Of a stretch of DNA of 64,000 nt, positions 3,569-63,037 are shown in pieces. Source of the stretch: Escherichia phage IME11. Numbering within the stretch: the stretch's first letter is position 1; each line of letters begins with the position of its first letter. The notes under the pieces were generated by a model. The model did no database searches. It was not told the origin of the DNA and saw only the letters and a list, made by a program, of their open reading frames with translations. Location of the stretch: the sequence record NC_019423.1, one strand, 5' to 3'. A program made the position numbers and the translations under genes.

Positions 3569-5839
3569 ATGGAACACCAAGACACTTTTAAGCCTTTGCC
3601 AGACCCGGCTCAATCAGAGAAGTTAACGGACTGGAAGAAGGAACCAAGTATCCAATTACTGAAGGGTGATTTGGAATCTGCTAAACCTGCTCACGATGCA
3701 ATCATGTCTCAGATTCGTGAGTGGAATGACTTAATGGAAGTCAAGGGTAAAGCTAAACCCCCAAAGATTAAGGGACGCTCACAAGTCCAGCCTAGACTGG
3801 TTCGCCGTCAGGCAGAGTGGCGTTATGCACCATTATCTGAACCATTCCTCTCATCCAGTAAACTCTTTAAGCTAACACCTGTTACTTTTGAAGATGAGTT
3901 AGCTGCACGTCAGAATGAGTTAGTTCTTAACTACCAATTCCGTACTCAGCTTAATAAAGTAAAACTGGTGGATGATTACGTGCACAGTATTGTAGATGAC
4001 GGTACTGGTATTGCTCGTATTGGCTGGGAACGTAAGACCGTTAAGATTAAAACAGAAACTCCTGTCTTCCAGCTTTATCCCATTGAGAACCAGGAACAGG
4101 CAGATGTTCTTCAGCAGGCTTTACAACTTCAGGCAGAGAATCCTCGTGAATATGACGAAACTATGCCTGAAGATATTAAGGAAGCTGTTAACTATTTTAA
4201 TGAAACTGGTGAAGCTACCTATGCAATCCAGACTGGAGTTACTGAGGTAGAGGTAGAGAAAGCACTGGTTAACAGACCTACCGTTGAAATGCTTAACCCT
4301 AATAACGTAGTTATTGACCCAAGCTGTAATGGTGATTTGGATAAGGCTCTTTATGCAGTTATCTCATTCGAGACATGCAAAGCAGACCTCATGAAGAACA
4401 AAGACCGTTATCACAACCTGGATAAGATTGATTGGGAAAGCTCCAGTCCTATTACTGACCCAGACCATGAAAGTAAAACTCCTAGTGACTTCCAGTTTAA
4501 GGATGCACTTCGTAAGAAAGTTGTTGCTTATGAGTACTGGGGATTCTACGACATTAATGATGATGGTTCCCTGGAACCAATTGTTGCTACCTGGATTGGT
4601 TCTACTCTTATTCGTATGGAGAATAACCCATTCCCTGATGGTAAGTTACCTCTGGTGGTCGTTCCATACATGCCTCGTAAACGAGAACTCTTTGGTGAAG
4701 CTGATGCTGAACTATTAGGGGATAACCAAGCAATTCTTGGTGCAACTATGCGTGGGATGATTGACCTGTTGGGTCGAAGTGCAAACGGGCAGCGAGGTTA
4801 TCCTAAGGGGATGCTGGATACTCTTAACCGTCGTCGATACGATGATGGACAAGACTATGAATATAACCCAATGCAGGGTAATCCTAGTCAGTCCATTATG
4901 GAACATAAGTTCCCTGAGTTACCCCAGTCGGCAATAGTAATGACCCAGATGCAAAACCAGGAAGCAGAATCATTAACAGGTGTTAAAGCATTCTCTGGTG
5001 GTGTAACTGGTTCAGCTTATGGAGATGTGGCTGCTGGTATTCGTGGTGCACTTGATGCAGCATCCAAACGTGAGATGGCAATCCTTCGTCGATTAGCTAA
5101 GGGTATGGCAGATATTGGTACTAAGATTTGTGCAATGAATGCCGTGTTCTTATCTGAGAAGGAAGTAGTACGTATTACCAATGAACAATATGTAGAGATT
5201 AAACGAGAAGACCTTAAAGGTAATTTCGATATTGAAGTTGATATTAATACTGCCGAGATTGATAACCAGAAATCCCAGGATTTGGGCTTCATGGTTCAAA
5301 CATTAGGTAACACAGTTGACCAGTCTATTACGTTATCTCTTGTAGCTAAGATTGCAGAACTTAAACGTATGCCAGACCTTGCACATGAGTTACGTACTTG
5401 GCAACCACAACCAGACCCAATGGAAGAACAGCTTAAGCAATTGGCAATTCAGAAAGCACAGCTTGAGAATGAAGAGTTACAAAGTAAGATTGCACTCAAT
5501 AATGCTAAAGCTAAAGAAGCTGCTTCTAGTGGTGACCTTAAAGACCTGGATTATCTGGAACAGGAATCTGGTACTAAACATGCTCGTGATATGGAAAAAC
5601 AAAAAGCACAATCCCAAGGAAACCAGAACCTTCAGATAACTAAGGCATTGACAACACCTACTAAAGAAGGTGAAACTACCCCCAACATATCTGCTGCTGT
5701 TGGATATAACACTTTGACTAACGGGAACTCTCCACAAGAACGTGACTTAGCTGCTCAACAAGACCCAGCTTATTCACTTGGTTCCCAATACTATGACCCT
5801 AGCCAAGACCCAGCATCGGCTCTTGGCATGAACCTGTAA
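3569..5839 (+). CDS. portal protein
   Basis: 756-aa ORF between lysis cassette and capsid genes; size and position match the portal gene of N4-like phages (about 760 aa); no motif confirmed by eye. Confidence 0.65.
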
Positions 5840-15431: not shown

Positions 15432-18400
15432 TTGAACAGGAAACATGCTATGTCAACATTTGACCGTCTGGCAGGTTTCGCAGACAGCATCACTAATGCT
15501 AAGCAAGTCGATGTCTCTACTGCAACCTCTCAGAAGCAAGCTGCACAAGGGCAAAGCCCTTTCCAATTAACCCCAGAGAACGCTTACAATCTCCAAACAG
15601 GACGAGTAGGTAATCTTGGAACTGGTGCATTCGATCCAGGTTCACTTCAGGCTGATTTCACCCAAGCCTCCCCATTAGAAATCATTAATAAGTACGGTAA
15701 TGAGCAAGGTCTACAGATTCTTAATAGCCGAGCTAATGCTGCTGATGTCGTACGTCAGGACTTATCTAAACAGCGTACTAACTCAGAAGCATTTGGCGAT
15801 ACTCTTTCTGGTGTTGGTCTTGGTGTTGCTAATACCCTTGGGGGCATTGCTGCTCTTGGCACAGGTCTGGTCAATGATAATGCCGGGGCATCCATTGCTT
15901 CCGGGATGGATTGGCTGAATGAAGGTGTACATAATCTACAGTCTGATGCACTGAATGCTACTCGTAAGGTTGTTCAGAATCAGAACCAGATTTCTGCACA
16001 AGAGAACCAGAAACTCTATGAAGAAGATATCAAAAATGGGGAGAGCAGTTTGGTTGCCTCCTTGTCTCGCATTGGTCGTGACGCTTTTGATTCTGTTGCT
16101 AATACACTTGATAATGGTATGGCTGCTTCCGATGGACTGAGTGAAGGTGTTGGTTCTCTCTTTACTGGTGGTCCACTTATCCGTGGTGTGTCTGCACTAG
16201 GTAAAGTAATGGTAGGTGGGGATAAAGCTGTTAAGGGTATTACCCTAGCTGCTGAGTTAGGTTCACGTCCTGCACAGGTTGCTCTGTCTGCTGGTCGTGT
16301 TGCTGCACCTGCTGTAGCAATCGGTGGTATGGAAGCTGGTGGAGCATACCAACAGACTGCTTCTGAAATCATGAAGATGTCTCATCAAGAGTTGGCAAGT
16401 AAGTCTCCTGTATATCGACAACATATTGCTGATGGTTTATCTCCTGATGAAGCACGCCGTCAGACTGCATCTGAAACAGGTATTACTGCTGCTGGCTTAA
16501 CTGCTCCAGTTGCTGCTGCTACTGGTCCACTGGTATCTCGTTTTGAACTTAACCCACTTAAGGTAGGTTCACTGGCTGGTGCTGGTTCTAACATGCTCCG
16601 TGAAACTGTAGAAGAGGGTATTCAATCCGGCTTCGGTCAGTTCGCACAGAACACTGCAATTAAGGAAAATGTTGATGCATCCCGTGACACCCTCAAAGGG
16701 GTTGGTGAGCAAGCAGGTCTGGGTGCACTCTATGGCTTTGGTAGTGCTGGAGTTGCTCAAGCTCCTGGTGCAACTGTTAAAGCTGCTGGTGCTGCCGTTG
16801 GTCCTACTGTACGTACTACCTTGGCTGGTGCTTCTCTGGTTGGTAATGCACTAGCAAAAGTAGCTTCTCCTATCACTAACATTCTGGTTCAACGTGGAGA
16901 AGAAGTTGCTAAGCGAAATGAACAAGCATCTCCTGTATCAGATGCTACCGTTAATGCTGCTGCACAAGAAGCTACTGCTCAAGCAGAACAAGCACAAGCA
17001 ACCGTACAGGAAGCAGTAGATGCAATGGATATTTCTCCTGAAGAGAAAGCTGCTGCTACTCAGTATGCTGCTGACTTAACTCAGGCAATGAAGTTTGACC
17101 CAGTAGAACTGGAGCAAGCTAACCCGGCAATCCGTGAAGCTGTTTCTGGTTCCACTAACCGTGTTGAGGCTATCCAGAAGATGGCTGACTTGGTTAATAC
17201 TGCCGAAGACCCTAACATTCAAATGGAAGCTGCTATTCAGATGTATGACAACATCATGTCTATGGATAGCTTCATTAACCGTGACCCAGGTGCACTAGCT
17301 AATCTGGAACAAGGCTCTCCTGCTGCTAATATTGTTGACCAGTTCTCTGGTCTGATGGCTAACGTTCAGAATACACCGAAGGTACTTCGTGCATTCCGTG
17401 CTATTCATTCCATGATTCAGGAACAGGCTGAAGCAGGTAAACTGAAAGCTACTGAAGAAGCTAACCAAGCTCAGGCAAACAACATTGCTATGGCTGCTGA
17501 TATGTCTCCAGAAGTTCTGGATGCAGATTCAGTGAACATGGTTCTGAAACATGCTAGTGAAGGTAAGATTACACTGGGGAATCGTCAACGTGCTGCCCTG
17601 CAATCGGCTGCTGCTGTCTTACAGGGTGCACGTGAGTTCGACGCTAAGGCAGAAGAACTTGGCTTACGTCCTCAAGACATTGTTAGTAAACAGATTAAAA
17701 CTGACGAATCTCGTTCTAATGAAGGCCAGTACTCTGCGTTGCAACATGCGAAACGCATTCGCTCTGCGTACAACTCTGGTAACTTTGATTTGGCCTCCGC
17801 TTACCTTGACGACTTTATGAAGTTCGCCCAGCACATGCAGAATAAGGTCGGAGCGTTGAATGAGCATCTGATTTCGGGGAATGCGGATAAGAATAAGTCT
17901 GTTCACTATCAGGCTCTCTCGCCTTCCCGTGAATGGGTACGTAGTCGTACTGGCCTCGGTGTTAATCCGTATGATACCAAGTCGGTTAAGTTTGCCCAGC
18001 AAGTAGGACTGGAAGCCAAGACCGTAGCTGATATTGCTAATGCACTTGCTACGGCTTACCCGGAGCTTAATGTTTCTCATGTTAAAGTTACTCCATTAGA
18101 TTCACGTCTGGACAAGCCTGCTGCCCAGGTGGTTAAAGAGTTCCGTCAGGGCAATCTTGACGCTGCTCAATCCCAACAGACTAATGAACCAGTGAATCAG
18201 GTTGATGAATCTCCTGCACCAGTGCAAGAGGCCACTACTACTGTACAGCCTAAAACTAAACCAGTGGTAGAAAATAAATCTGCTCCTGTTAAGGATACTA
18301 GTTCAAAACCAGAAGAAGTAACTACTACTGAGTCTGAAACAGTAGATACTGCCCTCACCAATGAGGATACCACTCAGGAAGTAGCTGAAACTAAAACGGA

Positions 18401-21400
18401 AATGGAAACAGTGTTCCCTGTCTATAACAATGACAAGACACCGAGCCAGTTCCTTAAAGCATTTGCTCTGCCGGAAGAACCTAAGACTCGTACCATTGGT
18501 TCTGAATCTCCTTTGACTGATGTTAAGCAAGCACTGTCTTCTGCTGCTCGCTTTGAAGCATTCACACAAAAAGAAAATAACGCTCTCACGGGTGATGTGA
18601 TGAAACGTTATCAAGACTTACTAGGCTTTGGTGAAACTCTGAAGAGTACTCTGTCTGACCGTCTGGCTAAGTTCCTTGCTAACAAGAATGTTGGTAAACG
18701 TTTTGCAGAGGGTACTGAGGCTAACCGTTGGGTAGGTGGCAAACTGCTGAATATCGTTGAGAAAGATGGCGACACCTTTAAGTTCAACGACCAGTTGTTG
18801 GAGACTGCTGTACTTGCTGGATTGCAATGGCGATTAACTGCTACGCAGAATGCTGCCATTAAAGACATGAAAGACGTAGCTGCTATTACTGGTGTAGAAG
18901 TATCCTTGTTACCTGATGGTATTCTGGCTGACTTTGAGAATGCTCAGACCCTGGTTGAAGCTACTAACTCACTGGCCCAAAAGATTGAATCTTACTGGGG
19001 TTTGAATCGTAATCCAAATGCACCACTGGGTTATACCAAAGGTATCCCAATGGCAATGGCTACGGAGATTCTGTCTTCTCTCATTGAGATGGGTGAAGTT
19101 AAAGAGTCTATGCTGGATGTGTCTGAAATTGACCCAGCCTCCAATAAGACTGTTGGTCTGTATACTATTGAGAAGCTGGATGATAATGATGCCATTAATA
19201 ATTTTCCTACTGCTATTGAGGAAGCTGTCCTCGTAGAACCAGAAGAGAAAATGTACTTCGGTGATGATATTCCTTCCGTGGCTCAAACTCAGTTACGTAA
19301 CCCGGCTGTTAAGAATACCCCGGAACAGCAAGCTGCTCTTAAAGCAGAACAGGCTACTGAGTTCCGTGTACACATGCCTATGGTTAACTTCTATGAAGCA
19401 TTGGGTCGTGACAACATTCTGGAACTGATGGGTGCTGGTACTCTTAATCCTGAATTACTGAACGTAAACACTGCTAAATCATTGGAAGGTAAAAACCTGT
19501 CCGTGTCTATGGCATACGATTCCTTGTTTGGGGTAATCAATCAGGTTCAGGAACAGGAGAACGGACTGGATACACCTATTCACTATGGTTACAACATGAC
19601 CCGTGTAGGTCGTATGCAGATGCTTGGTAAGAATAACCCACAATCCAGTAAGCTGGTTCGTGAAGCAATTCTGCCAACCTTCTCTACTATCGACTTGAGT
19701 AATGAAAACAGCCAAACGTTCTCAGACTTCCAGTTAGGTCTGGCTCAGGCATTAGGCATCAAGGTACATAACATGTCCCGTGAAGCTATGTCTGAAAAGC
19801 TGACTAAAGCTCTGGAAGGTAATCTGAAACCTGCTGTTGATATGATGGTTGAGTTTGATAAGTCTGGTCACTTACCTACTGATGCAGTGGATATTCTGAA
19901 GACCTCTTTAGGTGGCGATAAATCATTCGTAGCTCTCATGGCTCTGATGGAATATGCCCGTTACCTGAATAGTAACGACCGTGCTAATTTTAATACCCCA
20001 CTGTACGTTGAAGCCGATGGTGTAACCAACGGACCAATTAACGCAATGGTATTAATGACCGGTGGTAAGTTCACTCCAGACTGGATTAAGAATACTGCTA
20101 AAGGTGGTTTGTTCTTCGGTAAAGCTGGTAAGACTATGAACGAGCATCGTTCACAGGATGACAGTGTTGACCTGTATGAAGCATCTACTAATGGTCTGCA
20201 ACAGGCACTTGGTGAATTACGTAGTACTTACCGTAACAACGTTCCTGTTATGAGCCAGATGAGTCATCTCCAGAAGTTAATGGACCTGTTCATCAAAGAC
20301 TTTAACCTGAATGAAGACGGTACACTGGACCTGAAACGTGGTATCGCTAAAAATCCACTAACCATTACCATCTATGGTTCTGGTGCTCGTGGTATTGCTG
20401 GCAAGATGGTTAGTGCAATTACTGATACCATCTACGAACGCTTCAGCGACGTTCTGCAAGCTCGTGCTGCTGACCCTAGCATTTCCCCGGCTATGGCAAT
20501 GTTTGGTAAGGAGGCTGCATCTGAGGCCGATGCTCAGGCTATGCTGGATACTTTCCTTACTTCTATGGAAGCACTGACTGGTAATGTTCCAGTTATGCGT
20601 AAGGGTGAGTTGTCTATTCAGCAAGCAGAAGGTGCTCTGACTGGTAAGTTAGACCCACAGAAGTTTACTGTATCTGGTAATGCCCTGAAGAACTTACAAG
20701 AGAACATGCTTCACCTGTTCGTTGAACCAATGCGTACTGGTATCCGAAATACTGTTGGTGAAGGTCTGATGCATTCTACTGAGAACTTACAGAAGGCTAC
20801 CCAGATTCAATCTCTGGTATTGCAGGATATGTTCCAACAAGCAGTACAGGCTAAACTGGCAGAAAAAGAAAAAGACCCAACATGGAAGAAAGGTGATTTC
20901 TTAACACAGAAAGAACTGAATGAAATTCAGGAATCATTATCTCCACTGGCTCCAATGATTGAGACTGGCTCACAGACTTTCTACATTGCTGGTAGTGAGA
21001 ACACTGATGTTGCTAACCAAGTACTGGCTACTAACTTAGATGACCGTATGCGTGTGCCAATGAGCATCTATGCTCCTTCACAAGCAGGTGTTGCAGGTAT
21101 TCCATTTATGACCATCGGTACTGGTGACGGCATGATGATGCAGACCCTTTCTACTATGAAAGGTGCTCCGAAGAATACCCTGAAAATCTTTGATGGTATG
21201 AACATTGGTATCAATGACATCACTGATGCAAGTCGTAAAGCTAATGAGGCTGTATATACTTCCTGGCAGGGTAACCCTATCAAGAATGTTTATGACTCCT
21301 TTGCTAAGTTCATGAAGAACGTAGACTTCAGCAAACTGTCTGATGAAACCAAACAGGCTATCGCTAAATCTGCTCTGGAATACGACCAGCGTGAGGGTGC

Positions 21401-24400
21401 TACTGATGACCTGTTACGTATTGGTGCTGAACAGATTGAACGTAATCTGCGTAACATTGCTCTGGGTGTAGATATTCGCCACAAGGTAATGAACCAGGTA
21501 CAGACTACTGTTGACCAGATGGCTGCTGTAGGTGCTCCTTATGTGAACAACGGTAAAATTTCTCTGGAAGGTCTGACTGTAGACCAACAAGTAGCTAAGC
21601 TGAACGAACTGTTTGATGTTGAATTAAACAAGCGTCGTGATGCAGTACGTGCTGCTAAAGCAGAACCAGTGAAAGAAGTACCAGCAATGGAACAGGTTGG
21701 TCGTGTACTGAAGTCTGGTGTACGTCTACTGTCTAATACTGCTATTACTAAGTTGGCTAAAGAGATGACTCCAGAACAGGCTGCTGTACTGAAAGAAGTA
21801 CAGAACTCCCTTGCTGCTAAAGACTACAAGGTTGTTTATGGCACTCCTTCTCAACTGGATGCCTACGCTATTGAGAAGAACATTACTCGCCCAGCACCGG
21901 AAGATATTGAAGCTGCTGAAGCTGGTAATGCATACGGCTGGACTAACTTTGATGATAAGACCATCTACTTAGTTACTCCTTCCTTAGAGACTCTGGTTCA
22001 TGAATTGGTACATGCTTCTACTTTTGAATCTGTACTGGCTCACTATGAAGGTACTCCTAATGAAGCAGTTCAGAATATTGAAGACCTGATGAACCAGTTC
22101 CGAACTCTGGATGTTAAGGATGAATCCCCGGCAGTACGTGAAGCATATGCTGATGCACTCAATACCATTAATGGTCACTTGTCTAATGGCTTTATTGAAC
22201 CAGCAATGGCTAAAGCTGCTGCACTGAATGAGTACATGGCATGGGGCTTAACCAACCGTGAACTGATTGGTAAGCAGAAGAAAACCACTGCACTTAAGGC
22301 CATGGTTCAGTCTGTGTATGAAGCAATCAAACGTCTGGTATTCGGACGTAAGAAAGCCCCTGCTAACGCAGATGATATGTTCTCTGGCTTACTGTTTAAC
22401 TCTTCTGTAGTTATGCGTGGGCAGGCTCCTACTGCTGCTGTAGCCAAGGACACTACTCTGTTCCATAACAAAGCATATGGTGACAATACTCGTCTGGAAG
22501 AGCTAGGGAAGACCTTCGATAAACTGATTACTAACTACATTGGTTCAGAACCAGTACAACAAGTAATTCGTAAAGGTAAGTTCTCTGATGCAGTAGTGAA
22601 TGCAACTAAAGTAACCCGTGATGTTCAGGCTCATGGCTTCACTATGAATATGCAGGAACAGCGTCTCTTTACTAACATTGTTGCTGCACTGGCTACCGAA
22701 GCTGCTATTAGTCCAGCTGCTCTGGCTCGTGCACAAGAATACTATGCACACGTAACCAAGAACCTGACTGTTGAAGCGTTCATGACTGACCCGGATAGTA
22801 CTAACCCTGCTGACCGTTACTACGCACAGCAGAAGTTCGATACCATCATGGGTGCTAACAACATTGAGTTTGATGCACAAGGTCGTTCTTCCTTACTGCC
22901 TACCTTTGTGGCACTGGCAATGGTAAGTGAAGATGTACGTAATGTGCTGGCTGACATTCCTGTTATGAAAGCAGATAAGCAATCCGGTAATACCGTTGAT
23001 GCAATGCTGACTAATATCGGTACTGCTGCAATGGCTAGTCTGAATGCTCGTGTAGCAGGTGATACTAAAGCTACCAATGTACAAGAAGGTATGGATGCAC
23101 TGGCTCAGACCATCATGCAGACCAGTCTTAATGCACAGTCATTCTATGATTCCGTCGCCACTCCTAGTGGTAATGCTATAGACCGTGCTAACCAGTATCT
23201 GGTGGACTCTATTGATGTACTGTCTACCCGTGCTTTAGAAGGTGCTCGTGAAGTTGCAGCTAATACCAAGAACCCGTTGGTTAAAGGTGCTGCTCATGCT
23301 GCACAACTGGTAGCTGCTATTGCTACAGAGAAGAATGGTGCAATCGTAGCTGAAGGTGTTATGGCTGCAATGAACCAGGGTAAAGCATGGCAACCTTTCC
23401 ACGACCTGGTTAATGACTTAACCGGACGTACTAAGAGCAATGCTTCTGTATATGATTTGATTAAAGCAGTTCGTGCACAGGTACAGGCTGACCGTCAACA
23501 GTTCCGTGAACACTTACCTACCACTATCGCATCCAAGTTCAGCCGTAAGCTGACTAATGATGAGTGGAAAGCAATGCATACCGGTATGGGTAAAACTGAC
23601 TTGGCTGTCCTGCGTGACACTATGTCTTTGGCTGAAATTCGTGACCTGCTGACTGACCAGAAGATTGTTGACCGTGAGGTGAATAAGCTGGAAGCAGATT
23701 TACAGAAACAAGCAGGACGTAACTGGCCTTTGATTAGCCGTAAATCTAAGCAACTGGCTCAGTACATGATTAACGGTACAGTCGGTAGTAACCTGCTGCG
23801 TAATGCTACTGCAATTTCTCGTATGCTGGGTGAACGACAGGCTGCACGTTCTACCGTAGATGTGGCTCAACTGGATAAGCTGATTACCTTGTATGCACTG
23901 GAAGCAATGAATAAGACTGACCGTGAGATGTTATCTTCACTGGCTCAGACAGAAATTGAAGGTATGGACTTTGCTACTTCTTATCTGGTTGGGCAGCGTA
24001 AAGATGAAATGGCTAAAGCCAAGTCTGATATGCGTGCAACCTTGAACCAGTACAAAGGACATATCCCCAGTGAAACTAAACAGGGTGTTAACCTGATTGT
24101 TGCTGAAGATAGTCAGTTTGCTGATTTGATTGAGAAGTCCTATGTACGTCTGGGTACTTATCAAGGTAGTTCTGCTAACCGTGGTCCAGCACGTAGCTAC
24201 TACTTTGCACCAGTACAGGCACAGGCTCCATTCTCACAGGGTATATTACAGAACGTTCGCAATACTGCTGGTGGTGTGGACCTTGGTACAGGCTTTACGA
24301 TGGGTTCCATGGTAGCAGGTCGTATCACTGACAAGCCTTCCGTAGACCGTATCACTAAAGCTCTGGCTCGTGGTGAACGTGGTAATGAACCACTGCTGCC

Positions 24401-25802
24401 TGTATATGATGACAAAGGGAATGTGGTTGCTTATGAGCAATCCATTGACCCTAACATGCTGAAGCACATTGAGGGTGAGAACCATCTTGCTCGTGCAATC
24501 GGTGTATGGCGTGGTCGTCAGGTAGAAGAGGCTAAGGCTCAGCGTTTCAACGATATGCTTATTGAGAACCTACATAGCATGTATGAGAACGACATTAAGA
24601 TGTCTGCCTCTAATAAGTCCCAGTACGTTAACCTTCTTGGTTCTAAACTGGACCCAGTAACTGCCGATGCTCTTAAGCTGATGAATAGTGAAACTCGTCA
24701 GAAAGCAGAAAGCCTGTTTGGCCCGGGTGAGTTGTGGGTACGTCGTGATATGCTCAACGATGCTCTTGGTTATCGTGCAGCTTCTGTAGGGGATGCCTGG
24801 TCTGGTAATTCTCGTTGGTCCCCAGAAACACTGGATACCTTCAAGAAAGCTATGCTAGGTGTATTTGGCAATCGTGCATATAAGTACACAATGGGTGGTG
24901 AGAACCTGGTTCAGAACTTAGTTAAAGAAGCTAAGACCCTGATTGTAGTTAAGTCAGTAGTCGTACCTGCAGTTAACTTCCTAGCTAACCTTTACCAGAT
25001 GGTTGCTCGTGGTGTACCGGTTAAGAACATTGCTAAGAGCATTCCACAGAAGACTGCTGAGATTAACCAGTACCTGAAATCTCGTCTACGTCAGGTAGAT
25101 GCAGAAGCAGAATTACGTGCAGCTACTAACCCGAACCAGATTCGTAAACTTAAGGCTGAGATTCAGTCCATCTCTGATAGCCATAAGCGTTTAAGTATCT
25201 GGCCTCTGTTAGAAGCTGGTGAGTTCTCTTCAATTGCAGATGCTGGTATCGGACGTGATGACATCCTTATTACTGAGGGTAAACTTCACGAATACATGGA
25301 TAAGCTGGCTGATAAGCTACCTAAGTCTGTACGTAACGCAGGTCGTTATGCACTTATCACTAAGGATACTGCTCTCTTCCAGGGTATCCAGAAGACGGTT
25401 GAGTACTCTGACTTTATCGCTAAAGCAATCATCTATGATGAACTGACTCAGCGTAAAGGTAAGACTCGTGAGGAAGCACTGGGACGTGTAACGGAAGAGT
25501 TCATTAACTATGATCGTTTACCTGGTCGCTTCCGTGGGTATATGGAAAGCATTGGCTTAATGTGGTTCTACAACTTTAAGATTCGTTCTGCAAAAGTTGC
25601 AGTGTCCATGATTCGTAATAACCCAGTACATGCTGCTATGGCTATGTTGGCTCCAACCCCTACCATGTTTGGTAATGTTGGTTTACCTATTCAGGACAAC
25701 ATCTTCAGCATTGCTGCACAGGGCAATCTCGGTTACTCCTTCGGTTTCGGTCAGGGCTTACGTGCCCATAACCTGAACCCTTGGCTCAATCTTACTAACT
25801 AA
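15432..25802 (+). CDS. virion-encapsidated RNA polymerase (N4 gp50-like vRNAP)
   Basis: Single 3456-aa ORF (10.4 kb); central region has T7-like single-subunit RNAP motifs (motif A-like LYVEADGVTNG, motif B-like KNPLTITIYGSGARG); size matches the roughly 3500-aa N4 vRNAP. Confidence 0.85.
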   Translation: MNRKHAMSTFDRLAGFADSITNAKQVDVSTATSQKQAAQGQSPFQLTPENAYNLQTGRVGNLGTGAFDPGSLQADFTQASPLEIINKYGNEQGLQILNSRANAADVVRQDLSKQRTNSEAFGDTLSGVGLGVANTLGGIAALGTGLVNDNAGASIASGMDWLNEGVHNLQSDALNATRKVVQNQNQISAQENQKLYEEDIKNGESSLVASLSRIGRDAFDSVANTLDNGMAASDGLSEGVGSLFTGGPLIRGVSALGKVMVGGDKAVKGITLAAELGSRPAQVALSAGRVAAPAVAIGGMEAGGAYQQTASEIMKMSHQELASKSPVYRQHIADGLSPDEARRQTASETGITAAGLTAPVAAATGPLVSRFELNPLKVGSLAGAGSNMLRETVEEGIQSGFGQFAQNTAIKENVDASRDTLKGVGEQAGLGALYGFGSAGVAQAPGATVKAAGAAVGPTVRTTLAGASLVGNALAKVASPITNILVQRGEEVAKRNEQASPVSDATVNAAAQEATAQAEQAQATVQEAVDAMDISPEEKAAATQYAADLTQAMKFDPVELEQANPAIREAVSGSTNRVEAIQKMADLVNTAEDPNIQMEAAIQMYDNIMSMDSFINRDPGALANLEQGSPAANIVDQFSGLMANVQNTPKVLRAFRAIHSMIQEQAEAGKLKATEEANQAQANNIAMAADMSPEVLDADSVNMVLKHASEGKITLGNRQRAALQSAAAVLQGAREFDAKAEELGLRPQDIVSKQIKTDESRSNEGQYSALQHAKRIRSAYNSGNFDLASAYLDDFMKFAQHMQNKVGALNEHLISGNADKNKSVHYQALSPSREWVRSRTGLGVNPYDTKSVKFAQQVGLEAKTVADIANALATAYPELNVSHVKVTPLDSRLDKPAAQVVKEFRQGNLDAAQSQQTNEPVNQVDESPAPVQEATTTVQPKTKPVVENKSAPVKDTSSKPEEVTTTESETVDTALTNEDTTQEVAETKTEMETVFPVYNNDKTPSQFLKAFALPEEPKTRTIGSESPLTDVKQALSSAARFEAFTQKENNALTGDVMKRYQDLLGFGETLKSTLSDRLAKFLANKNVGKRFAEGTEANRWVGGKLLNIVEKDGDTFKFNDQLLETAVLAGLQWRLTATQNAAIKDMKDVAAITGVEVSLLPDGILADFENAQTLVEATNSLAQKIESYWGLNRNPNAPLGYTKGIPMAMATEILSSLIEMGEVKESMLDVSEIDPASNKTVGLYTIEKLDDNDAINNFPTAIEEAVLVEPEEKMYFGDDIPSVAQTQLRNPAVKNTPEQQAALKAEQATEFRVHMPMVNFYEALGRDNILELMGAGTLNPELLNVNTAKSLEGKNLSVSMAYDSLFGVINQVQEQENGLDTPIHYGYNMTRVGRMQMLGKNNPQSSKLVREAILPTFSTIDLSNENSQTFSDFQLGLAQALGIKVHNMSREAMSEKLTKALEGNLKPAVDMMVEFDKSGHLPTDAVDILKTSLGGDKSFVALMALMEYARYLNSNDRANFNTPLYVEADGVTNGPINAMVLMTGGKFTPDWIKNTAKGGLFFGKAGKTMNEHRSQDDSVDLYEASTNGLQQALGELRSTYRNNVPVMSQMSHLQKLMDLFIKDFNLNEDGTLDLKRGIAKNPLTITIYGSGARGIAGKMVSAITDTIYERFSDVLQARAADPSISPAMAMFGKEAASEADAQAMLDTFLTSMEALTGNVPVMRKGELSIQQAEGALTGKLDPQKFTVSGNALKNLQENMLHLFVEPMRTGIRNTVGEGLMHSTENLQKATQIQSLVLQDMFQQAVQAKLAEKEKDPTWKKGDFLTQKELNEIQESLSPLAPMIETGSQTFYIAGSENTDVANQVLATNLDDRMRVPMSIYAPSQAGVAGIPFMTIGTGDGMMMQTLSTMKGAPKNTLKIFDGMNIGINDITDASRKANEAVYTSWQGNPIKNVYDSFAKFMKNVDFSKLSDETKQAIAKSALEYDQREGATDDLLRIGAEQIERNLRNIALGVDIRHKVMNQVQTTVDQMAAVGAPYVNNGKISLEGLTVDQQVAKLNELFDVELNKRRDAVRAAKAEPVKEVPAMEQVGRVLKSGVRLLSNTAITKLAKEMTPEQAAVLKEVQNSLAAKDYKVVYGTPSQLDAYAIEKNITRPAPEDIEAAEAGNAYGWTNFDDKTIYLVTPSLETLVHELVHASTFESVLAHYEGTPNEAVQNIEDLMNQFRTLDVKDESPAVREAYADALNTINGHLSNGFIEPAMAKAAALNEYMAWGLTNRELIGKQKKTTALKAMVQSVYEAIKRLVFGRKKAPANADDMFSGLLFNSSVVMRGQAPTAAVAKDTTLFHNKAYGDNTRLEELGKTFDKLITNYIGSEPVQQVIRKGKFSDAVVNATKVTRDVQAHGFTMNMQEQRLFTNIVAALATEAAISPAALARAQEYYAHVTKNLTVEAFMTDPDSTNPADRYYAQQKFDTIMGANNIEFDAQGRSSLLPTFVALAMVSEDVRNVLADIPVMKADKQSGNTVDAMLTNIGTAAMASLNARVAGDTKATNVQEGMDALAQTIMQTSLNAQSFYDSVATPSGNAIDRANQYLVDSIDVLSTRALEGAREVAANTKNPLVKGAAHAAQLVAAIATEKNGAIVAEGVMAAMNQGKAWQPFHDLVNDLTGRTKSNASVYDLIKAVRAQVQADRQQFREHLPTTIASKFSRKLTNDEWKAMHTGMGKTDLAVLRDTMSLAEIRDLLTDQKIVDREVNKLEADLQKQAGRNWPLISRKSKQLAQYMINGTVGSNLLRNATAISRMLGERQAARSTVDVAQLDKLITLYALEAMNKTDREMLSSLAQTEIEGMDFATSYLVGQRKDEMAKAKSDMRATLNQYKGHIPSETKQGVNLIVAEDSQFADLIEKSYVRLGTYQGSSANRGPARSYYFAPVQAQAPFSQGILQNVRNTAGGVDLGTGFTMGSMVAGRITDKPSVDRITKALARGERGNEPLLPVYDDKGNVVAYEQSIDPNMLKHIEGENHLARAIGVWRGRQVEEAKAQRFNDMLIENLHSMYENDIKMSASNKSQYVNLLGSKLDPVTADALKLMNSETRQKAESLFGPGELWVRRDMLNDALGYRAASVGDAWSGNSRWSPETLDTFKKAMLGVFGNRAYKYTMGGENLVQNLVKEAKTLIVVKSVVVPAVNFLANLYQMVARGVPVKNIAKSIPQKTAEINQYLKSRLRQVDAEAELRAATNPNQIRKLKAEIQSISDSHKRLSIWPLLEAGEFSSIADAGIGRDDILITEGKLHEYMDKLADKLPKSVRNAGRYALITKDTALFQGIQKTVEYSDFIAKAIIYDELTQRKGKTREEALGRVTEEFINYDRLPGRFRGYMESIGLMWFYNFKIRSAKVAVSMIRNNPVHAAMAMLAPTPTMFGNVGLPIQDNIFSIAAQGNLGYSFGFGQGLRAHNLNPWLNLTN

Positions 25803-55582: not shown

Positions 55583-56800
55583 TTAACTAAGGGCATAATC
55601 AGTCTCCAGAATGTCCTGCCAGAGGCTGTCATCCAGCTTACCAGCAGAGAACTCTTGCCCCAATACCTGAGACAGGATGAAGCCCAGCAGGTCACTCTTA
55701 GCGATGTCAGACAGAATCTGATTGTACTGACGACGCAGGTCATTACCGTAGTTAGGATGGCAACGGAAGCAGTCATGCACAGTCATTACAGGGAATGGTT
55801 TCTTAGGCAGAGTGTCAATCATATCTGCTACTACCTGACGGTCTACATAAGCAATAGTACATGGGTCAAGATAATCAATGATTGATAATGATAAGAAGCC
55901 AGATTTCTCATAGTGGCTCCATAGCTCTTGTACCTTCTCCAGATTACCTACAATCTCCCCATATTCTGATGGACCTTCATCACAGAGTTCTCTCACAGCT
56001 TCCACTAAGTCACGGTCGAAGTTACAACGACGCAGCATCTCACGTACCACCATCCCATCAATTGAGTGAGTGATGTTAGCAGAGAGCATACGAGTCTTCT
56101 CTTCAGTACCCTGAACCATACGAGTGATGTCGAATGGCTTACCTAAGAAGTTAACAGTCTGTACTTCAGGAACCATTACCTTAATGACAGCGTGGAAGTT
56201 GTCAGGCAGTACCCATATATAACGGTTGGCATCCGGGTTACCACATTGCAGTAAGAACTTGTTCAGTGCCCAAGGACCACTTGCAACAGTTTCCATTACA
56301 TTCTCAAAAGTCTTGAGACGAATACCTTCACCGAATACCTCTTTGGGCTTGGCTTCTGAGCCGTAGAATGCAGTCATAACTGCTTGCTTGGTGTCACTAC
56401 GTTTAATACGGGATGCTTCACCAAGGATGTCCAGCATCTTGTGATAGATGACTGTATAAGCATCACGACGTAATGGCTTACCATTCTCTCCCATGTAGTT
56501 AACTACGTTACACAGTTCAGCAGCAGAACGGTCACCAGTCAGGCAGGCCAGTAACTGCAAGCCTGATGATGTAGCATCCAGAGCTACGGCATAACCGATA
56601 GGCTTACCTGCTTTCATATCTTTCCATGCGTTTACACCAGCAAAGAACAGTGCAGATTCTTCAGCCTCATCTACCAGATTAAGCAGGTTAGTTTCGTTCT
56701 CATCGAACCAAGCAATACGCTCATCCCATGTCTTCTTATCTAAGCCATAGTTATTGGCGATATCTACTTTCAGGTATTCACGAGCGGTTAACAGTTGCAT
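55583..56800 (-). CDS. phage RNA polymerase II, catalytic subunit (T7-like single-subunit RNAP palm/fingers)
   Basis: 405 aa; motif A ALDATSSGLQ (compare T7 DGSCSGIQ), motif B RSDTKQAVMTAFYGS (compare T7 RSVTKRSVMTLAYGS), motif C VMTVHDCF (compare T7 HDSF); T7 sequences quoted from memory. Confidence 0.7.
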   Translation of the reverse strand: MQLLTAREYLKVDIANNYGLDKKTWDERIAWFDENETNLLNLVDEAEESALFFAGVNAWKDMKAGKPIGYAVALDATSSGLQLLACLTGDRSAAELCNVVNYMGENGKPLRRDAYTVIYHKMLDILGEASRIKRSDTKQAVMTAFYGSEAKPKEVFGEGIRLKTFENVMETVASGPWALNKFLLQCGNPDANRYIWVLPDNFHAVIKVMVPEVQTVNFLGKPFDITRMVQGTEEKTRMLSANITHSIDGMVVREMLRRCNFDRDLVEAVRELCDEGPSEYGEIVGNLEKVQELWSHYEKSGFLSLSIIDYLDPCTIAYVDRQVVADMIDTLPKKPFPVMTVHDCFRCHPNYGNDLRRQYNQILSDIAKSDLLGFILSQVLGQEFSAGKLDDSLWQDILETDYALS

Positions 56801-57116: not shown

Positions 57117-57278
57117 TTAGATGGTTACTACGTCTGCAGTTAGTTTGTAAATTATGGTTTTACTCTTAGGGTTCTGTAGCTTGTAAAGCTTCTCAAAGTA
57201 TAAGCACTTCACATATGTACCTGAGTAAATACACTCTTCATTAACCCATAGCTCATAGGAGCCAATGTTAGTCTTCAT
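57117..57278 (-). CDS. small ORF (53 aa) between the two RNAP II subunit genes
   Basis: Below the ORF-track cut-off; AAGGAG RBS 8 nt upstream of the ATG; start overlaps the upstream stop by 11 nt. Confidence 0.4.
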   Translation of the reverse strand: MKTNIGSYELWVNEECIYSGTYVKCLYFEKLYKLQNPKSKTIIYKLTADVVTI

Positions 57279-58086
57279 TTACTAACTCCTTATCAGCGAA
57301 CTCCAGCACAGCTTTGTTGTAACTGGTTCCCTGATAGTTGATGTGGTAGCCACAGGCATATGTACGCCCACGTTTGTCATATTTGTGAGCCAAGGAGAAG
57401 TTATTGCCTTCTTTGGTTACTAGCTCCATTACTTCCTTAGCTGTACGACTGTACTTCTCAAAGGCTTTAACACGTTTCTCATAGTCCTGACGGGTTTCAC
57501 CTTCTTTGGGTTTATCCATGTTAGGACGAGAGTCTTTTACGTAGTTAGCAACGTCCCAGTTAATGCAGAGACGTTGATTATTCATACGGTTGATGTGGTC
57601 AAGACAGACGTCCATCTCATGATGGTTCTTCTTGAGGATGATGCTTCCTTTGCTTTCGTAGTAACCGGTGTCACGGTTACTCATAACAGGCTTAGGAGCA
57701 CTTACGATAGGCAATGGGTACTGGAATGCTTCCAGTTCCATCTGTACATCTTCACCAATCTCATAAATAACACCGAACTTGTCGATGGTAGGGTCATAGT
57801 TGAAGCAGTCATTCTCTGCCATCTTATACAGACAGTCAGCGATGTACTGAGCATCATCTGAGTGACTCATGAGGGAGCCAATCATAGTTTGAATGTCAGC
57901 TCGTTTATGTAGGGCAATCTGCACCATTGCATCAATGAGCAGCTTATAATCAATTTCTAAATAGGCAGCGAATGCCTTAAAGTCAATTTCTTTGGAGTCC
58001 TCGAATTCCTTCCTCATGCGAGGCAGGAGCTGATTTTTATTGAATAGTACTTCGAGTTGCTTCTGATGTTCGATTGACGAGTACAT
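57268..58086 (-). CDS. phage RNA polymerase II, N-terminal-type subunit
   Basis: 272 aa; C-terminal YDKRGRTYACGYHINYQG resembles the T7 RNAP D-x-x-G-R region (DWRGRVYAVSMFNPQG, from memory). Confidence 0.55.
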   Translation of the reverse strand: MYSSIEHQKQLEVLFNKNQLLPRMRKEFEDSKEIDFKAFAAYLEIDYKLLIDAMVQIALHKRADIQTMIGSLMSHSDDAQYIADCLYKMAENDCFNYDPTIDKFGVIYEIGEDVQMELEAFQYPLPIVSAPKPVMSNRDTGYYESKGSIILKKNHHEMDVCLDHINRMNNQRLCINWDVANYVKDSRPNMDKPKEGETRQDYEKRVKAFEKYSRTAKEVMELVTKEGNNFSLAHKYDKRGRTYACGYHINYQGTSYNKAVLEFADKELVNED

Positions 58087-58139
58087 CGCTTATTCTCCTA
58101 AATGTGATTAATAACCAAAAGCTGCGGAGCAGCTATTAC

Positions 58140-58400
58140 CTAACGCTTAGTCCAAAAGGTAATACGAATACTATTTTCATTACCAATGTAGTCGATACGT
58201 ACATGCAAGCCATTACCATTAAACTCATTGCTTTTATTCTGATAAGGCCAGACTAGGCTAGTCATAGGTATTTTAATGAAACCTGATATGTGTCCTAGTT
58301 TAGTACGGCTCTTTAATTCGTTCTGTAATGCACAATAGATATCGTGTCGTGTAAGTGCTCTGGCTCTGACTTGAGCAGACCATAATTCTTCATAAGTCAT
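58140..58400 (-). CDS. hypothetical protein (86 aa)
   Basis: ORF. Confidence 0.45.
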   Translation of the reverse strand: MTYEELWSAQVRARALTRHDIYCALQNELKSRTKLGHISGFIKIPMTSLVWPYQNKSNEFNGNGLHVRIDYIGNENSIRITFWTKR

Positions 58401-58402
58401 TA

Positions 58403-58753
58403 TTAACTCCAGTAGTTGTAAGCATCGCCTAAGTGTTTACGCCATGCTTCTGGTAACAGTACATTTCCAGTTACGTTAATGAATTGGTATGGGTCCAGAT
58501 AGTCATTACTCATAACTTTGAAATCCCATTGTGGATTAGAAGATGCATAGGCAATGAAACCTTCAATGAAGCCATAGATAGCACCCTCTTTAATCCGGTT
58601 ACCATAACCATCCTTTACTGGAATGGCAAAGCTATTACCATAATGACCATAGGCCATACCCCAGCGAGCACCATGCTTCTTATATGCTAATTTGGCAGCA
58701 GCATTATTATGCTGCCCAAGTAAATTGGTAGTGAATACTAAGATTTCTTTCAT
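58403..58753 (-). CDS. hypothetical protein (116 aa)
   Basis: ORF with N-terminal beta-alpha pattern (ILVFTTNLLGQHNNAAAKLA); family not recognised. Confidence 0.5.
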   Translation of the reverse strand: MKEILVFTTNLLGQHNNAAAKLAYKKHGARWGMAYGHYGNSFAIPVKDGYGNRIKEGAIYGFIEGFIAYASSNPQWDFKVMSNDYLDPYQFINVTGNVLLPEAWRKHLGDAYNYWS

Positions 58754-58756
58754 GAA

Positions 58757-59137
58757 TTATCCTTTTGGATTTTCTACAAAGTAGTTATACATAGCCTTTA
58801 CTAGCTTCTCTTTAATAACTTCACCATGACATGGTTTTGGATAGCAGAAGCACTGTAAGGCTAATCCTTTCTCGTCAATGGCTTTATTACCAAGACGATT
58901 AAGTTCATCCAGCACAACTGGATTACCTTTATCAATCTGTTCTTGTAACCAGACTCTATACTTAGCAATTACTTGCTCTCTGGTTCCATGTTTACCAATG
59001 ACGAATGGATTGCCTAATGGTGAGCCACGTCCAATATACTCACCGGATTTACCGTGATGTTTATTAACAATAATGATTGGACGTGCAGATACACCTAGTA
59101 AAGCATTGGTGTCGTCACCTAATGACATAATCTTCAT
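58757..59137 (-). CDS. DUF4326-like protein
   Basis: 126 aa; IGRGSPLGNPF ... YRVWL ... LQCFCYPKPCHGEVI matches my recollection of the DUF4326 signature (GNPF, C-x-C, CHG). Confidence 0.45.
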   Translation of the reverse strand: MKIMSLGDDTNALLGVSARPIIIVNKHHGKSGEYIGRGSPLGNPFVIGKHGTREQVIAKYRVWLQEQIDKGNPVVLDELNRLGNKAIDEKGLALQCFCYPKPCHGEVIKEKLVKAMYNYFVENPKG

Positions 59138-59448
59138 GGTTTAAGTACCTGAAATGCAAACACAGGACGTTTACTACGCCACTGGTTCATAGCTAATTCA
59201 CTAGTTTCAGAACCATCATGTAAGTCATAGATAAATGAGATTACATAGTCTGGTTCCTCTGGGAAGTTCTCTGTAGAGAATGGTAGACCTGATTCCTTAA
59301 GGATTGGAACTAGTGGTGATTCAGCATTGCAGTACAGAGTAAACTCTTCATTGAATGCTTGGCTTGTCTGAGATACATAATCAATATTACGCATCATCTT
59401 ATCTACATCAGTAAATGTAGAATCATGAATTACTAGAATAGTTTTCAT
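59134..59448 (-). CDS. hypothetical protein (104 aa)
   Basis: ORF with 4-nt overlaps to neighbours. Confidence 0.45.
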   Translation of the reverse strand: MKTILVIHDSTFTDVDKMMRNIDYVSQTSQAFNEEFTLYCNAESPLVPILKESGLPFSTENFPEEPDYVISFIYDLHDGSETSELAMNQWRSKRPVFAFQVLKP

Positions 59449-59699
59449 ACCTTTCTCAATGTCCCATAGATGTTATTATTGACAATACTCAAATCACAGA
59501 AACCAATCTCTTCTTGTCTCCCAGCGGATACCCAGATATTGTTTTCTGTTAGCTTAGGTTTCTTAGAGAATCCTATTAATGAGGTATTAGCACTCTTATA
59601 CTGTCGGGTATATAACGCTATATACTTAACCCAGTGAGGCACTTGAATAGTATGTTTCATATACTCCACAGTCTTGCCTGTAGGATATGTAATAATCAT
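59445..59699 (-). CDS. hypothetical protein (84 aa)
   Basis: ORF with 4-nt overlaps to neighbours. Confidence 0.45.
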   Translation of the reverse strand: MIITYPTGKTVEYMKHTIQVPHWVKYIALYTRQYKSANTSLIGFSKKPKLTENNIWVSAGRQEEIGFCDLSIVNNNIYGTLRKV

Positions 59700-59917
59700 T
59701 TCTGATACCCTTCTATGAAGTTAGTACGACGAATGAGCTGAGTAGATGCCTTAACAGCCGTCTTCTTGAACTCATCTTTGTGTTGGTTTTCCAATATCTT
59801 ATCCCATTCTTTCTGGTTCCGGCGTTTCTGTAGAATACGACTACACTTCTTATGATTAGCAACTCCTTTACGTTTATTACATATAGGGCAAACACCATAA
59901 TCAGTTGAGTACATCAT
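59696..59917 (-). CDS. small basic Cys-containing protein (73 aa)
   Basis: CPICNKRKG...HKKCSR pattern, Lys/Arg-rich; possible zinc ribbon (only three Cys seen). Confidence 0.4.
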   Translation of the reverse strand: MMYSTDYGVCPICNKRKGVANHKKCSRILQKRRNQKEWDKILENQHKDEFKKTAVKASTQLIRRTNFIEGYQK

Positions 59918-60222
59918 TGGCTTAAAGCCTCCATTAATATTTTACGAATAACGTTAACATCAGATTCAGTACCAATTAAGCCAACAGGTTTACCTGTACT
60001 ATCTGTTACAAAGGATGCAATCCTTTCCATCTCTGCTATAATTAACTTGTCACCACTAATAAGACGATTACGAAGGTAAGCTTCATAAGCTACCTCTACA
60101 TCTTCTACCGTGGTTCTTTCATTACGAGAGAATGGATTACTTAATGGAAAGGGTAAATGTACCCTTATATTCCTGTCAGCTACCTTAGCTAAATGAGGAA
60201 GTATACATACTATTTCATTCAA
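59914..60222 (-). CDS. hypothetical protein (102 aa), TTG start
   Basis: ORF begins with TTG preceded by AGGAGAAATAACC; downstream of a terminator. Confidence 0.45.
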   Translation of the reverse strand: MNEIVCILPHLAKVADRNIRVHLPFPLSNPFSRNERTTVEDVEVAYEAYLRNRLISGDKLIIAEMERIASFVTDSTGKPVGLIGTESDVNVIRKILMEALSQ

Positions 60223-61082: not shown

Positions 61083-61268
61083 TTACTCCTTATGGAGTTT
61101 ACGGATTTGTTTACGGGTAGGTTTAGTTACAAAGAAGTGGTCATAGCAACGACCATTTTCATCTTTTACAGATACCTGCCAACGAGCATTCAATGTCATC
61201 TTACTGCCCCAAGGCTGTAATGTAACAATCAACTTCTGTGAGTTATAACGGTTACATACTGTACGCAT
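61083..61268 (-). CDS. small basic protein, paralog of 61922..62128
   Basis: C-terminal FFVTKPTRKQIRKLHKE shares KPT(R/K)KQIRKL with the 68-aa ORF at 61922..62128. Confidence 0.5.
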   Translation of the reverse strand: MRTVCNRYNSQKLIVTLQPWGSKMTLNARWQVSVKDENGRCYDHFFVTKPTRKQIRKLHKE

Positions 61269-61902: not shown

Positions 61903-61917
61903 AGACGCGGAGCGTCT
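61903..61917 (-). promoter_or_regulatory. candidate virion-RNAP (N4-type) early promoter hairpin
   Basis: Template (+) strand AGACGC-GGA-GCGTCT: 6-bp stem, 3-nt GGA loop, upstream of 61412..61795; one of three near-identical hairpins. Confidence 0.45.
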
Positions 61918-61921
61918 AGTT

Positions 61922-62128
61922 TTAGATTGCTTCTTTACGAAACTCTCTACGCAATTTACGGATTTGTTTCTTGGTAGGCTTAGCAGGGAATGAATGACAA
62001 GCAACATAGTGCTGTCTCTCTGTTACGTTAGTAATCTCTGAGAACCAAAGATTCCACTGAGCATCCATCTTACCTAACAATCCACCATTGTTACTCTTGT
62101 TTGCAAACAGGGAAGTTTGAATACGCAT
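61922..62128 (-). CDS. small basic protein, paralog of 61083..61268
   Basis: C-terminal FPAKPTKKQIRKLRREFRKEAI; GGAG RBS. Confidence 0.5.
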   Translation of the reverse strand: MRIQTSLFANKSNNGGLLGKMDAQWNLWFSEITNVTERQHYVACHSFPAKPTKKQIRKLRREFRKEAI

Positions 62129-63022: not shown

Positions 63023-63037
63023 ACATGCGGAGCATGT
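63023..63037 (-). promoter_or_regulatory. candidate virion-RNAP (N4-type) early promoter hairpin
   Basis: Template (+) strand ACATGC-GGA-GCATGT: 6-bp stem, GGA loop; about 50 nt upstream of the ATG of 62657..62980. Confidence 0.45.

Follow-up and report, generated by a model that had tools for sequence, protein, structure and literature searches.

An eroded yet constrained mini-macrodomain beside a DUF4326 gene in the early region of a Gamaleyavirus

In computational work, Iyer, Burroughs, Aravind and co-workers (the Aravind group) have delineated viral modules that combine DUF4326 with Macro, SLOG and NADAR domains, and have described them as early-expressed and as dividing up the processing of ADP-ribose derivatives (PMC7824862, PMC9503650). 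DUF4326 was placed there in the rhodanese-phosphatase superfamily, as a clade with Macro, SLOG and NADAR fusions, and was proposed to process terminal phosphates on the ribose of ADP-ribose derivatives; the proposal is computational, and the supporting analysis is cited as "in preparation" (PMC9503650, PMC7824862). Among individual phage proteins, T4 Tk.4/AdfM is a macrodomain shown to counter DarTG2 (bioRxiv 10.1101/2025.11.20.689424), and a DarG2-like protein has been reported from a chimallivirus. The AdfB protein of ICP1 was considered as a precedent for macrodomain mimicry and was set aside, as AdfB, according to its paper, binds DarT directly. The anti-Avs protein ORF83 provides a further comparison, since its amoeba-virus homologs are fused to DUF4326 (bioRxiv 10.1101/2025.06.06.658234). 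Like the locus described below, these viral homologs associate DUF4326 with another domain, here a nucleotide-processing Rossmann-like one, and ORF83 has an anti-defence phenotype. Its domain, however, is of the LOG/SLOG type, whereas the partner in the present locus is a macrodomain. Two relatives, PBM-3 and 24-32N, have an additional SLOG gene in this region, which is absent from the window (the whole 64-kb stretch of DNA analysed here).

The window derives from an E. coli podophage of the N4 type, a Gamaleyavirus close to G7C and ECBP1. The two genes of interest are complete open reading frames on the minus strand: a DUF4326 gene at 58757-59137 (126 aa) and a gene for a small macrodomain-like protein at 58403-58753 (116 aa). 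Their coordinates agree exactly with the initial annotation, which had left out the strand. The start of the DUF4326 gene overlaps the stop of the upstream open reading frame (ATGA), only 3 bases separate it from the macro-like gene, and the latter is preceded, 8 nt ahead of its start, by an AAGGA ribosome-binding site. On the open reading frame map, both genes belong to a block of seven early genes (58140-60222, minus strand) whose starts and stops overlap or abut, and which also contains a second, degenerate DUF4326 gene. The order of genes in this block is that of gp9-gp14 of N4 and of the Gamaleyavirus relatives. Indeed, gp12 and gp14 of N4 (NC_008720, 3605-3973 and 4148-4528) are direct orthologs of the pair, with the same order and strand, in an early block upstream of the RNAPII genes; unlike the window, with its 3-base gap, N4 has a small gene, gp13, between them.

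A 4-kb stretch around the locus is matched by 75 phage records at 87-94% identity, and more than 70 sequenced relatives carry both genes. Pairwise dN/dS values against relatives range from 0.04 to 0.2 across the genes for the 126-, 116- and 102-aa proteins (the last being the degenerate DUF4326 paralog), from which we conclude that all three genes are genuine and subject to purifying selection. Conservation, dN/dS (0.05-0.2 for the pair) and tight spacing together place the coding status of the two open reading frames of the pair far beyond chance.

The pair is situated between orthologs of N4 gp1/gp2 on one side and, on the other, orthologs of the RNAPII subunits gp15/gp16, whose genes lie at 57268-58086 and 55583-56800. 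Only three hairpins on the plus strand of the 64-kb window, i.e., the template strand of these genes, combine a GGA loop with a stem of 5 bp or more; each of them is intergenic, lies in the early region and has the same GC-GGA-GC core. The first is at 63023-63037. The second (AGACGC-GGA-GCGTCT, 61903-61917) lies upstream of the gp2-like gene and, of the promoter candidates upstream of the block, is the closest to it. The third (AGCTGC-GGA-GCAGCT, 58120-58134) follows directly after the block, ahead of the RNAPII small-subunit gene, and marks the end of the unit. The pair thus lies between the second and third hairpins. N4 has equivalents at 557-573, before gp2, and at 4546-4562, before gp15; the former matches the sequence of the N4 vRNAP promoter P2. 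A consensus scan for terminators had also proposed the hairpin at 58134-58120, a candidate we rejected because its position and sequence are those of the promoter class. Two terminator-like hairpins occur upstream of the block, at 61402-61383 and 60298-60273. Judged by their location relative to the hairpins and the RNAPII genes, the DUF4326 and macro-like genes are predicted to be N4-type early genes, and the early-region placement first given to them holds, with the block flanked by N4-type vRNAP promoter hairpins.

The 126-aa protein had been assigned to DUF4326 from a GNPF...CxC...CHG pattern, and correctly so: the Pfam model PF14216 matches it with 80.5 bits (E 1.4e-22; gathering threshold 25 bits) over profile positions 4-82 of 82. 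The protein, 91% identical to its ortholog N4 gp12, contains a YIGRGS segment, GNPF at residues 42-45 and a C96-F-C98...C103-H104-G105 motif (C96-x-C98-x4-C103-H104-G). An alignment of 64 diverse DUF4326 sequences yields 14 invariant columns (Y34, G36, R37, G42, N43, P44, R53, V56, L94, C96, C98, P100, C103 and H104), every one of which is present in the window protein. By these sequence measures, it is a canonical member of the family. A profile search extended to distant relatives collects more than 7,600 database proteins, and the family occurs in 885 phage genomes. DUF4326 had been described initially as having no established function, and our search of the literature likewise found no functional data for either protein's family (N4 gp12, N4 gp14, T4 NrdA.1, PF14216 and A1S_2505).

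In the AlphaFold model of the 126-aa protein (pLDDT 90), a strand (residues 92-95) leads into the cysteine loop, which is followed by a helix (residues 105-122). This predicted layout bears a resemblance, for which the support is weak, to the anion-binding loop of the cysteine phosphatases and of the RapZ C-terminal domain. The active-site signatures of these folds are CX5R in phosphatases and CX4-5[RT] in rhodaneses. The DUF4326 loop, C98-YPKPC-H104, is instead a CX5H; an arginine at the end position of CX5R occurs in none of the 64 aligned sequences, so that neither signature is matched. Foldseek with the DUF4326 model returned no matches, phosphatases included, and the DUF4326 profile, when searched against PDB sequences, gave spurious matches only (e.g., designed repeat proteins and old yellow enzymes). 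The RapZ C-terminal domain, whose ligands are an amino-sugar phosphate and a small RNA, differs in the same position (CX5R in PDB 5o5q and 5o5s, against CX5H). Kinship between DUF4326 and RapZ found no support in sequence: comparisons of the DUF4326 profile by hhalign and hmmsearch were non-significant, and the real sequence scored no higher than shuffles. A search of genome contigs for RapZ yielded only Enterobacterales copies at least 95% identical. By eye, the motifs KHG, Y[IV], R, NP[FH] and C-X5-[RH] are colinear in DUF4326 and RapZ; as the real sequence scores like shuffles, this colinearity is a lead only. The published placement in the rhodanese-phosphatase superfamily is therefore compatible with the present results and is not independently established by them, given the empty Foldseek search and the non-significant RapZ comparisons.

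The same loop raises the alternative that C-x-C-x4-C-H binds zinc or an iron-sulfur centre in a structural or regulatory capacity, and that DUF4326 is a small, non-enzymatic early takeover factor that binds nucleic acid or protein. One DUF4326 homolog carries a 9-residue insertion in this loop, which would suit a Zn-binding site better than a P-loop, and the three invariant cysteines and the histidine, the lack of CX5R and the lack of a phosphatase match in Foldseek all point in this direction. A Thermus phage annotator has guessed at a 4Fe-4S centre for a DUF4326 protein. The invariant residues Y34, G36, R37, G42, N43, P44 and R53, on the other hand, cluster in loops of the type that line a ligand pocket, unlike a zinc knuckle, and a paralog that has lost the Cys/His motif keeps the motifs that define the fold. 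On balance, we regard a purely metal-binding, non-enzymatic role as improbable.

The paralog in question is the degenerate DUF4326 protein encoded at 59914-60222 (minus strand, 102 aa) within the same block, an ortholog of N4 gp9. It is recognised by phrog_464 (E 2e-15) and by Jackhmmer, which groups it with DUF4326, whereas the Pfam DUF4326 model reaches only E 0.03. SNPF is retained, and LIGTESDV replaces CFC..CHG, so that the Cys/His motif is gone. The gene has dN/dS values of 0.04-0.18. Since such gp9-type proteins retain the fold-defining motifs without Cys or His, the cysteines of DUF4326 appear dispensable for folding.

A second alternative places DUF4326 in nucleotide or DNA metabolism, as a thiol- or metal-dependent accessory of dNTP supply or as a factor that cleans DNA ends in replication, and would reduce the adjacency of the macro-like gene to inherited order without coupling. 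T4 NrdA.1 is itself a DUF4326 protein (Pfam E 5.5e-22), small and stand-alone like the 126-aa protein; within the td-nrdA-nrdB cluster, the start of nrdA and the gene for NrdA.1 overlap. In the unrelated jumbo phage PBECO4 a DUF4326 gene is found between nrdD and nrdG, and in several T4-like Klebsiella phages beside nrdB. The copies of NrdA.1 and PBECO4 are of a short type, without the helical insert (residues 69-90) of the N4-like copies. In two viral contigs, DUF4326 is fused to the N-terminus of family-A DNA polymerases, an arrangement that would equally suit the DNA-binding module of the metal-site alternative. The phage phi G17 retains the short macro-like gene and is without DUF4326; the pair is thus separable, in keeping with the metabolic reading. 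The window phage, however, has no ribonucleotide reductase gene near its DUF4326 gene, and the "NrdA-like" labels of DUF4326 proteins in GenBank seem to have been taken from the T4 gene name rather than from homology to NrdA. Moreover, fusions and gene pairs outside the N4-like phages, described below, bind DUF4326 to domains of the ADP-ribose type. We therefore regard a metabolic role, with no coupling to the macro-like gene, as possible and somewhat unlikely. In this regard, ADP-ribosylation of DNA by DarT blocks replication, so that metabolic and immunity-related readings of DUF4326 can both hold.

The 116-aa protein had initially been left without a nameable family, a view that the profile searches overturn. 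NCBIfam NF049995 (A1S_2505 family phage non-structural protein) matches residues 4-81 with 83 bits (E 1.7e-23; curated cutoff 45 bits), phrog_2072 matches with E 1.2e-36, and the fold is macrodomain-like. The protein is the ortholog of N4 gp14 (46% identity), and a protein of phage vB_EcoP_CU10EC is 100% identical to it. The N-terminal beta-alpha pattern recognised earlier corresponds to a strand at residues 3-10 followed by a helix at 18-26 of the AlphaFold model (pLDDT 93). In structure comparison, this model displays the mixed-sheet alpha/beta/alpha sandwich of the macro fold, and its top matches are the macrodomains DarG and TARG1 (OARD1). Some GenBank records name homologs of the protein "macro domain" or "ADP-ribosylglycohydrolase".

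At the sequence level, hhalign aligned a profile of 48 A1S_2505 sequences with TARG1 (sequence checked against PDB 2lgr) over 89 columns, with E 4.9e-5 and a probability of 68%. The three hallmark motifs of the family, FGSNxxGxHGxGAA, IPTK and [IV]GCGLAG, fall in register with those of TARG1, including the catalytic lysine and IGCGL: G.HGAGAA is set opposite CRMGAGIA, IPTK opposite LITK84 and IGCGLAG opposite IGCGLD125. A Pfam scan of the 116-aa protein gave no match, and the Pfam Macro models (PF01661 and relatives) matched neither it nor 39 family members at E values up to 10. The family profile against PDB sequences gave only spurious matches of the kind mentioned above, and weak matches of 12 members to 5-FTHF cyclo-ligase (best E 0.0035) were judged to be noise. 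The mini-macro profile was also compared with T4 Tk.4/AdfM as a single sequence, with a non-significant result. We conclude that the A1S_2505/N4 gp14 family is a compact TARG1/DarG-like macrodomain, its sequence support being the single hhalign comparison with TARG1. The family measures about 125 aa, as opposed to at least 150 aa for macrodomains of the TARG1/DarG type. It is also large, as an exhaustive profile search collected 4,960 cluster representatives; it occurs in 240 sequenced phage records, mostly Schitoviridae. The profile searches thus did not place the two window proteins in unrelated, well-characterised families: one belongs to a DUF and the other to the macrodomain superfamily, and the two are linked by genomic context.

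The copy in the window departs from its family in precisely these motifs. Within the A1S_2505 family, S, N, G and H of the first motif are invariant or nearly so, and its further two G residues, the T and K of IPTK and the G.G.AG of the third motif are conserved in at least 90% of members. In the 116-aa protein the glycine loop reads FTTNLLGQHNNAAA where the family has FGSNLAGxHGAGAA, with HNNAAA for HGAGAA, and the near-invariant residues G8, S9, G16 and G18 are all substituted. IPVK replaces IPTK, and the RIGCGLAG loop has disappeared through a deletion of 8 aa. By comparison, the 126-aa gp14 of N4 is intact (HGAGAA, IPTKD and RVGCGLAG); relative to it, the window protein is missing 8 residues of the last of these loops, and its glycine loop is degraded. 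T4 Tk.4 similarly has a PRIGAGIG loop like the family motif, whereas the window copy is without the IGCGL loop.

An intact macrodomain is found in N4 and in the Gamaleyaviruses PhAPEC5, PhAPEC7 and Bp4, where it adjoins a nearly identical DUF4326 gene. The intact form accounts for 202 of the 240 phage records and the short form for about 38, and from this distribution we take the short form to be the derived state. One homolog (P0007) is intermediate, with the deletion present and the glycine loop intact, which suggests that loss of RIGCGLAG preceded decay of the glycine loop. The gene for the 116-aa protein nevertheless shows dN/dS values of 0.07-0.2 (about 0.1) against its relatives.

The macrodomain loop equivalent to the deleted RIGCGLAG holds the diphosphate of ADP-ribose. 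Because this loop is missing, we infer that the 116-aa protein has lost the usual mode of ADP-ribose binding, and its sequence indicates that ADP-ribose hydrolase activity has probably been lost too. Against this stands the reading that the short protein still binds or hydrolyses ADP-ribose by way of a remodelled pocket, in which case the pair would be fully functional as a module against ADP-ribosylation. In favour of this reading, the fold prediction is of high confidence, purifying selection is strong, and a number of family-invariant residues have been kept: F7, N10, G13, H15, A19, A20, the KKHGA stretch, S41-F-A-I-P45, Y69 and W104. Furthermore, hhalign sets K47 of the IPVK segment opposite K84 of TARG1. 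The catalytic lysine is K84 in TARG1 and K80 in DarG. About 90% of family members have K here, and the short-form close relatives of the 116-aa protein have K, R or Q. The variation of the lysine in close relatives, the complete deletion of the loop equivalent to the diphosphate-binding IGCGLD of TARG1, the four replaced glycine-loop residues and the derived status of the short form, with most phage homologs intact, lead us to consider an active short macrodomain unlikely.

The connection between the two genes was assessed beyond the N4-like phages, within which the adjacency of DUF4326 and macro could be mere inheritance. In 70 macro-family proteins with more than one domain, Pfam identified YAcAr SLOG (9), NADAR (4), DprA-like (4), WYL_2 (2), DUF4326 (1) and Acb2/Tad1 hairpin (1) domains. 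The DUF4326-containing member (P0382) is a DUF4326-macro-SLOG fusion whose domains follow the order of the window genes. In a set of 79 diverse viral DUF4326 loci, overlapping DUF4326 and macro genes, in this order, are found in two high-GC contigs that have no other gene in common with this phage and no other N4 genes, and SLOG is fused or adjacent to DUF4326 in seven. Conversely, a search with the macro profile found 54 viral loci; DUF4326 lies upstream in the same orientation in 16 of them, and most macro loci are without it. As family members are fused to SLOG, NADAR and DUF4326, P0382 included, the pair resembles the ADP-ribose-processing modules predicted by the Aravind group, here divided between two genes. 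The domains and fusions of those modules are reproduced here; the window differs from them in having separate genes, a degenerate macrodomain and a second, cysteine-less DUF4326 paralog.

The best explanation, to which we would give an even chance of being correct, is that the two are co-transcribed early genes that represent a recurrent phage module, here split, for ADP-ribose or related ribose-phosphate compounds, with a macro copy that is non-catalytic. The DUF4326 protein would bind, and perhaps dephosphorylate, a phosphate on ribose, its candidate substrates being an ADP-ribose-derived compound, a nucleotide or a nucleic-acid end. From family context, the intact macro family may remove or degrade, early in infection, the ADP-ribose adducts or signals made by DarTG- or Thoeris-type host immunity. 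The 116-aa copy would derive from such a TARG1/DarG-like mini-macrodomain, would most likely have lost hydrolysis and may persist in a non-catalytic capacity, e.g., as a binding partner or decoy. A more specific form of this last step, in which the macrodomain of the Gamaleyavirus sub-lineage is a pseudoenzyme that, without catalysis, either works with or regulates the intact DUF4326 protein encoded next to it or acts as a decoy for a host ADP-ribosyltransferase or immune sensor, we consider doubtful. If true, it would mean that the phage carries two retained "dead" domains of the ADP-ribose network, the macrodomain and the gp9-type DUF4326, with new functions.

PADLOC models gave no matches to four early proteins of the window. 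By analogy, a counter-defence role of the pair is plausible in view of the fusion partners of the macro family (SLOG, NADAR, DUF4326 and the Acb2/Tad1 hairpin), the published predictions and the precedent of T4 Tk.4/AdfM. A simple version of this reading is opposed by the macro copy of this phage, from which the motifs for ADP-ribose binding have gone.

The gene pair itself is ordinary and already annotated, and the combination of DUF4326 with Macro has been predicted computationally before; the new point is the eroded yet constrained macrodomain of this lineage. The value of the locus is accordingly that of a test bed for the function of DUF4326 rather than that of a surprise. N4-like coliphages are tractable in the laboratory, and the locus offers a natural comparison in which the same DUF4326 gene lies beside two macro alleles, intact in N4, PhAPEC5 and Bp4 and eroded in this phage, ECBP1 and the G7C-like phages. 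Comparison of these alleles could reveal whether the genes counter defences of the DarTG or Thoeris type, and what DUF4326 contributes.

The pairing of a DUF4326 gene with a downstream macro gene of the A1S_2505 family, as seen in the window, recurs in two high-GC viral contigs, in which the two genes overlap (locus L190, positions 1920-2598, and locus L210, positions 1317-2010). Apart from this pair, neither locus shows further similarity to the window phage, and in their macro copies TPVGTGLAG replaces TRIGCGLAG. In Gamaleyavirus phi G17 (locus L076, 2676-3348), the short macro-like gene immediately follows a gene annotated as an antirepressor; a DUF4326 gene was not recovered in that locus, where no ortholog was found and none is annotated, showing that the two genes are separable. 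In the relative 24-32N, two additional genes separate DUF4326 from the macro-like gene.

DUF4326 genes also occur beside ribonucleotide reductase genes. T4 nrdA.1 (L078, 6672-6998) encodes a DUF4326 protein (Pfam E-value 5.5e-22) and overlaps the start of nrdA, and the DUF4326 gene of jumbo phage PBECO4 (L079, 2986-3318) is flanked by nrdD and nrdG. Many phage records name DUF4326 genes “NrdA-like ribonucleotide reductase”, labels which look like a propagated gene name. Two environmental viral contigs code for family-A DNA polymerases with an N-terminal DUF4326 fusion (L168, 4983-7715, 911 aa; L170, 4902-7394, 831 aa).

The window itself contains a second, degenerate DUF4326 paralog (59914-60222, - strand; 102 aa, TTG start), the ortholog of N4 gp9. 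It retains the SNPF motif and the helical core, with LIGTESDV in place of the CFC..CHG of the family. Purifying selection acts on the paralog, and the gp9 type is more widely kept than the canonical copy across Enquatrovirinae loci.

Three hairpins with a GC-GGA-GC core and 6-bp stems (63023-63037, 61903-61917 and 58120-58134, on the + strand, i.e., the template) are the sole examples of their kind in the 64 kb, and all are intergenic and located in the early region. Their positions match those of the hairpins preceding N4 gp2 and gp15, such that they are probably early promoters for the virion RNA polymerase, itself presumably encoded by the 3,456-aa ORF at 15432-25802 (+ strand; TTG start according to the ORF listing). 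The 58120-58134 hairpin appeared terminator-like in a consensus scan; a promoter is preferred owing to its N4-matching position and its sequence. Two small early ORFs on the - strand (61083-61268 and 61922-62128) flank the gp2-like gene. A common motif lies at their C-termini (KPTRKQIRKLHKE and KPTKKQIRKLRRE, respectively), and both match a single protein of phage PBM-3; by these similarities they look like paralogs.

At the junction between the ORFs 59445-59699 and 59696-59917, the relatives PBM-3 and 24-32N carry an additional 118-aa YAcAr-type SLOG gene, annotated as “DprA” (L002, 4671-5027, and L001, 6723-7079, respectively), whereas the window, where the junction is at 59696-59699, has no such gene. 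This junction is therefore an insertion/deletion hotspot for genes of the NAD/ADP-ribose network.
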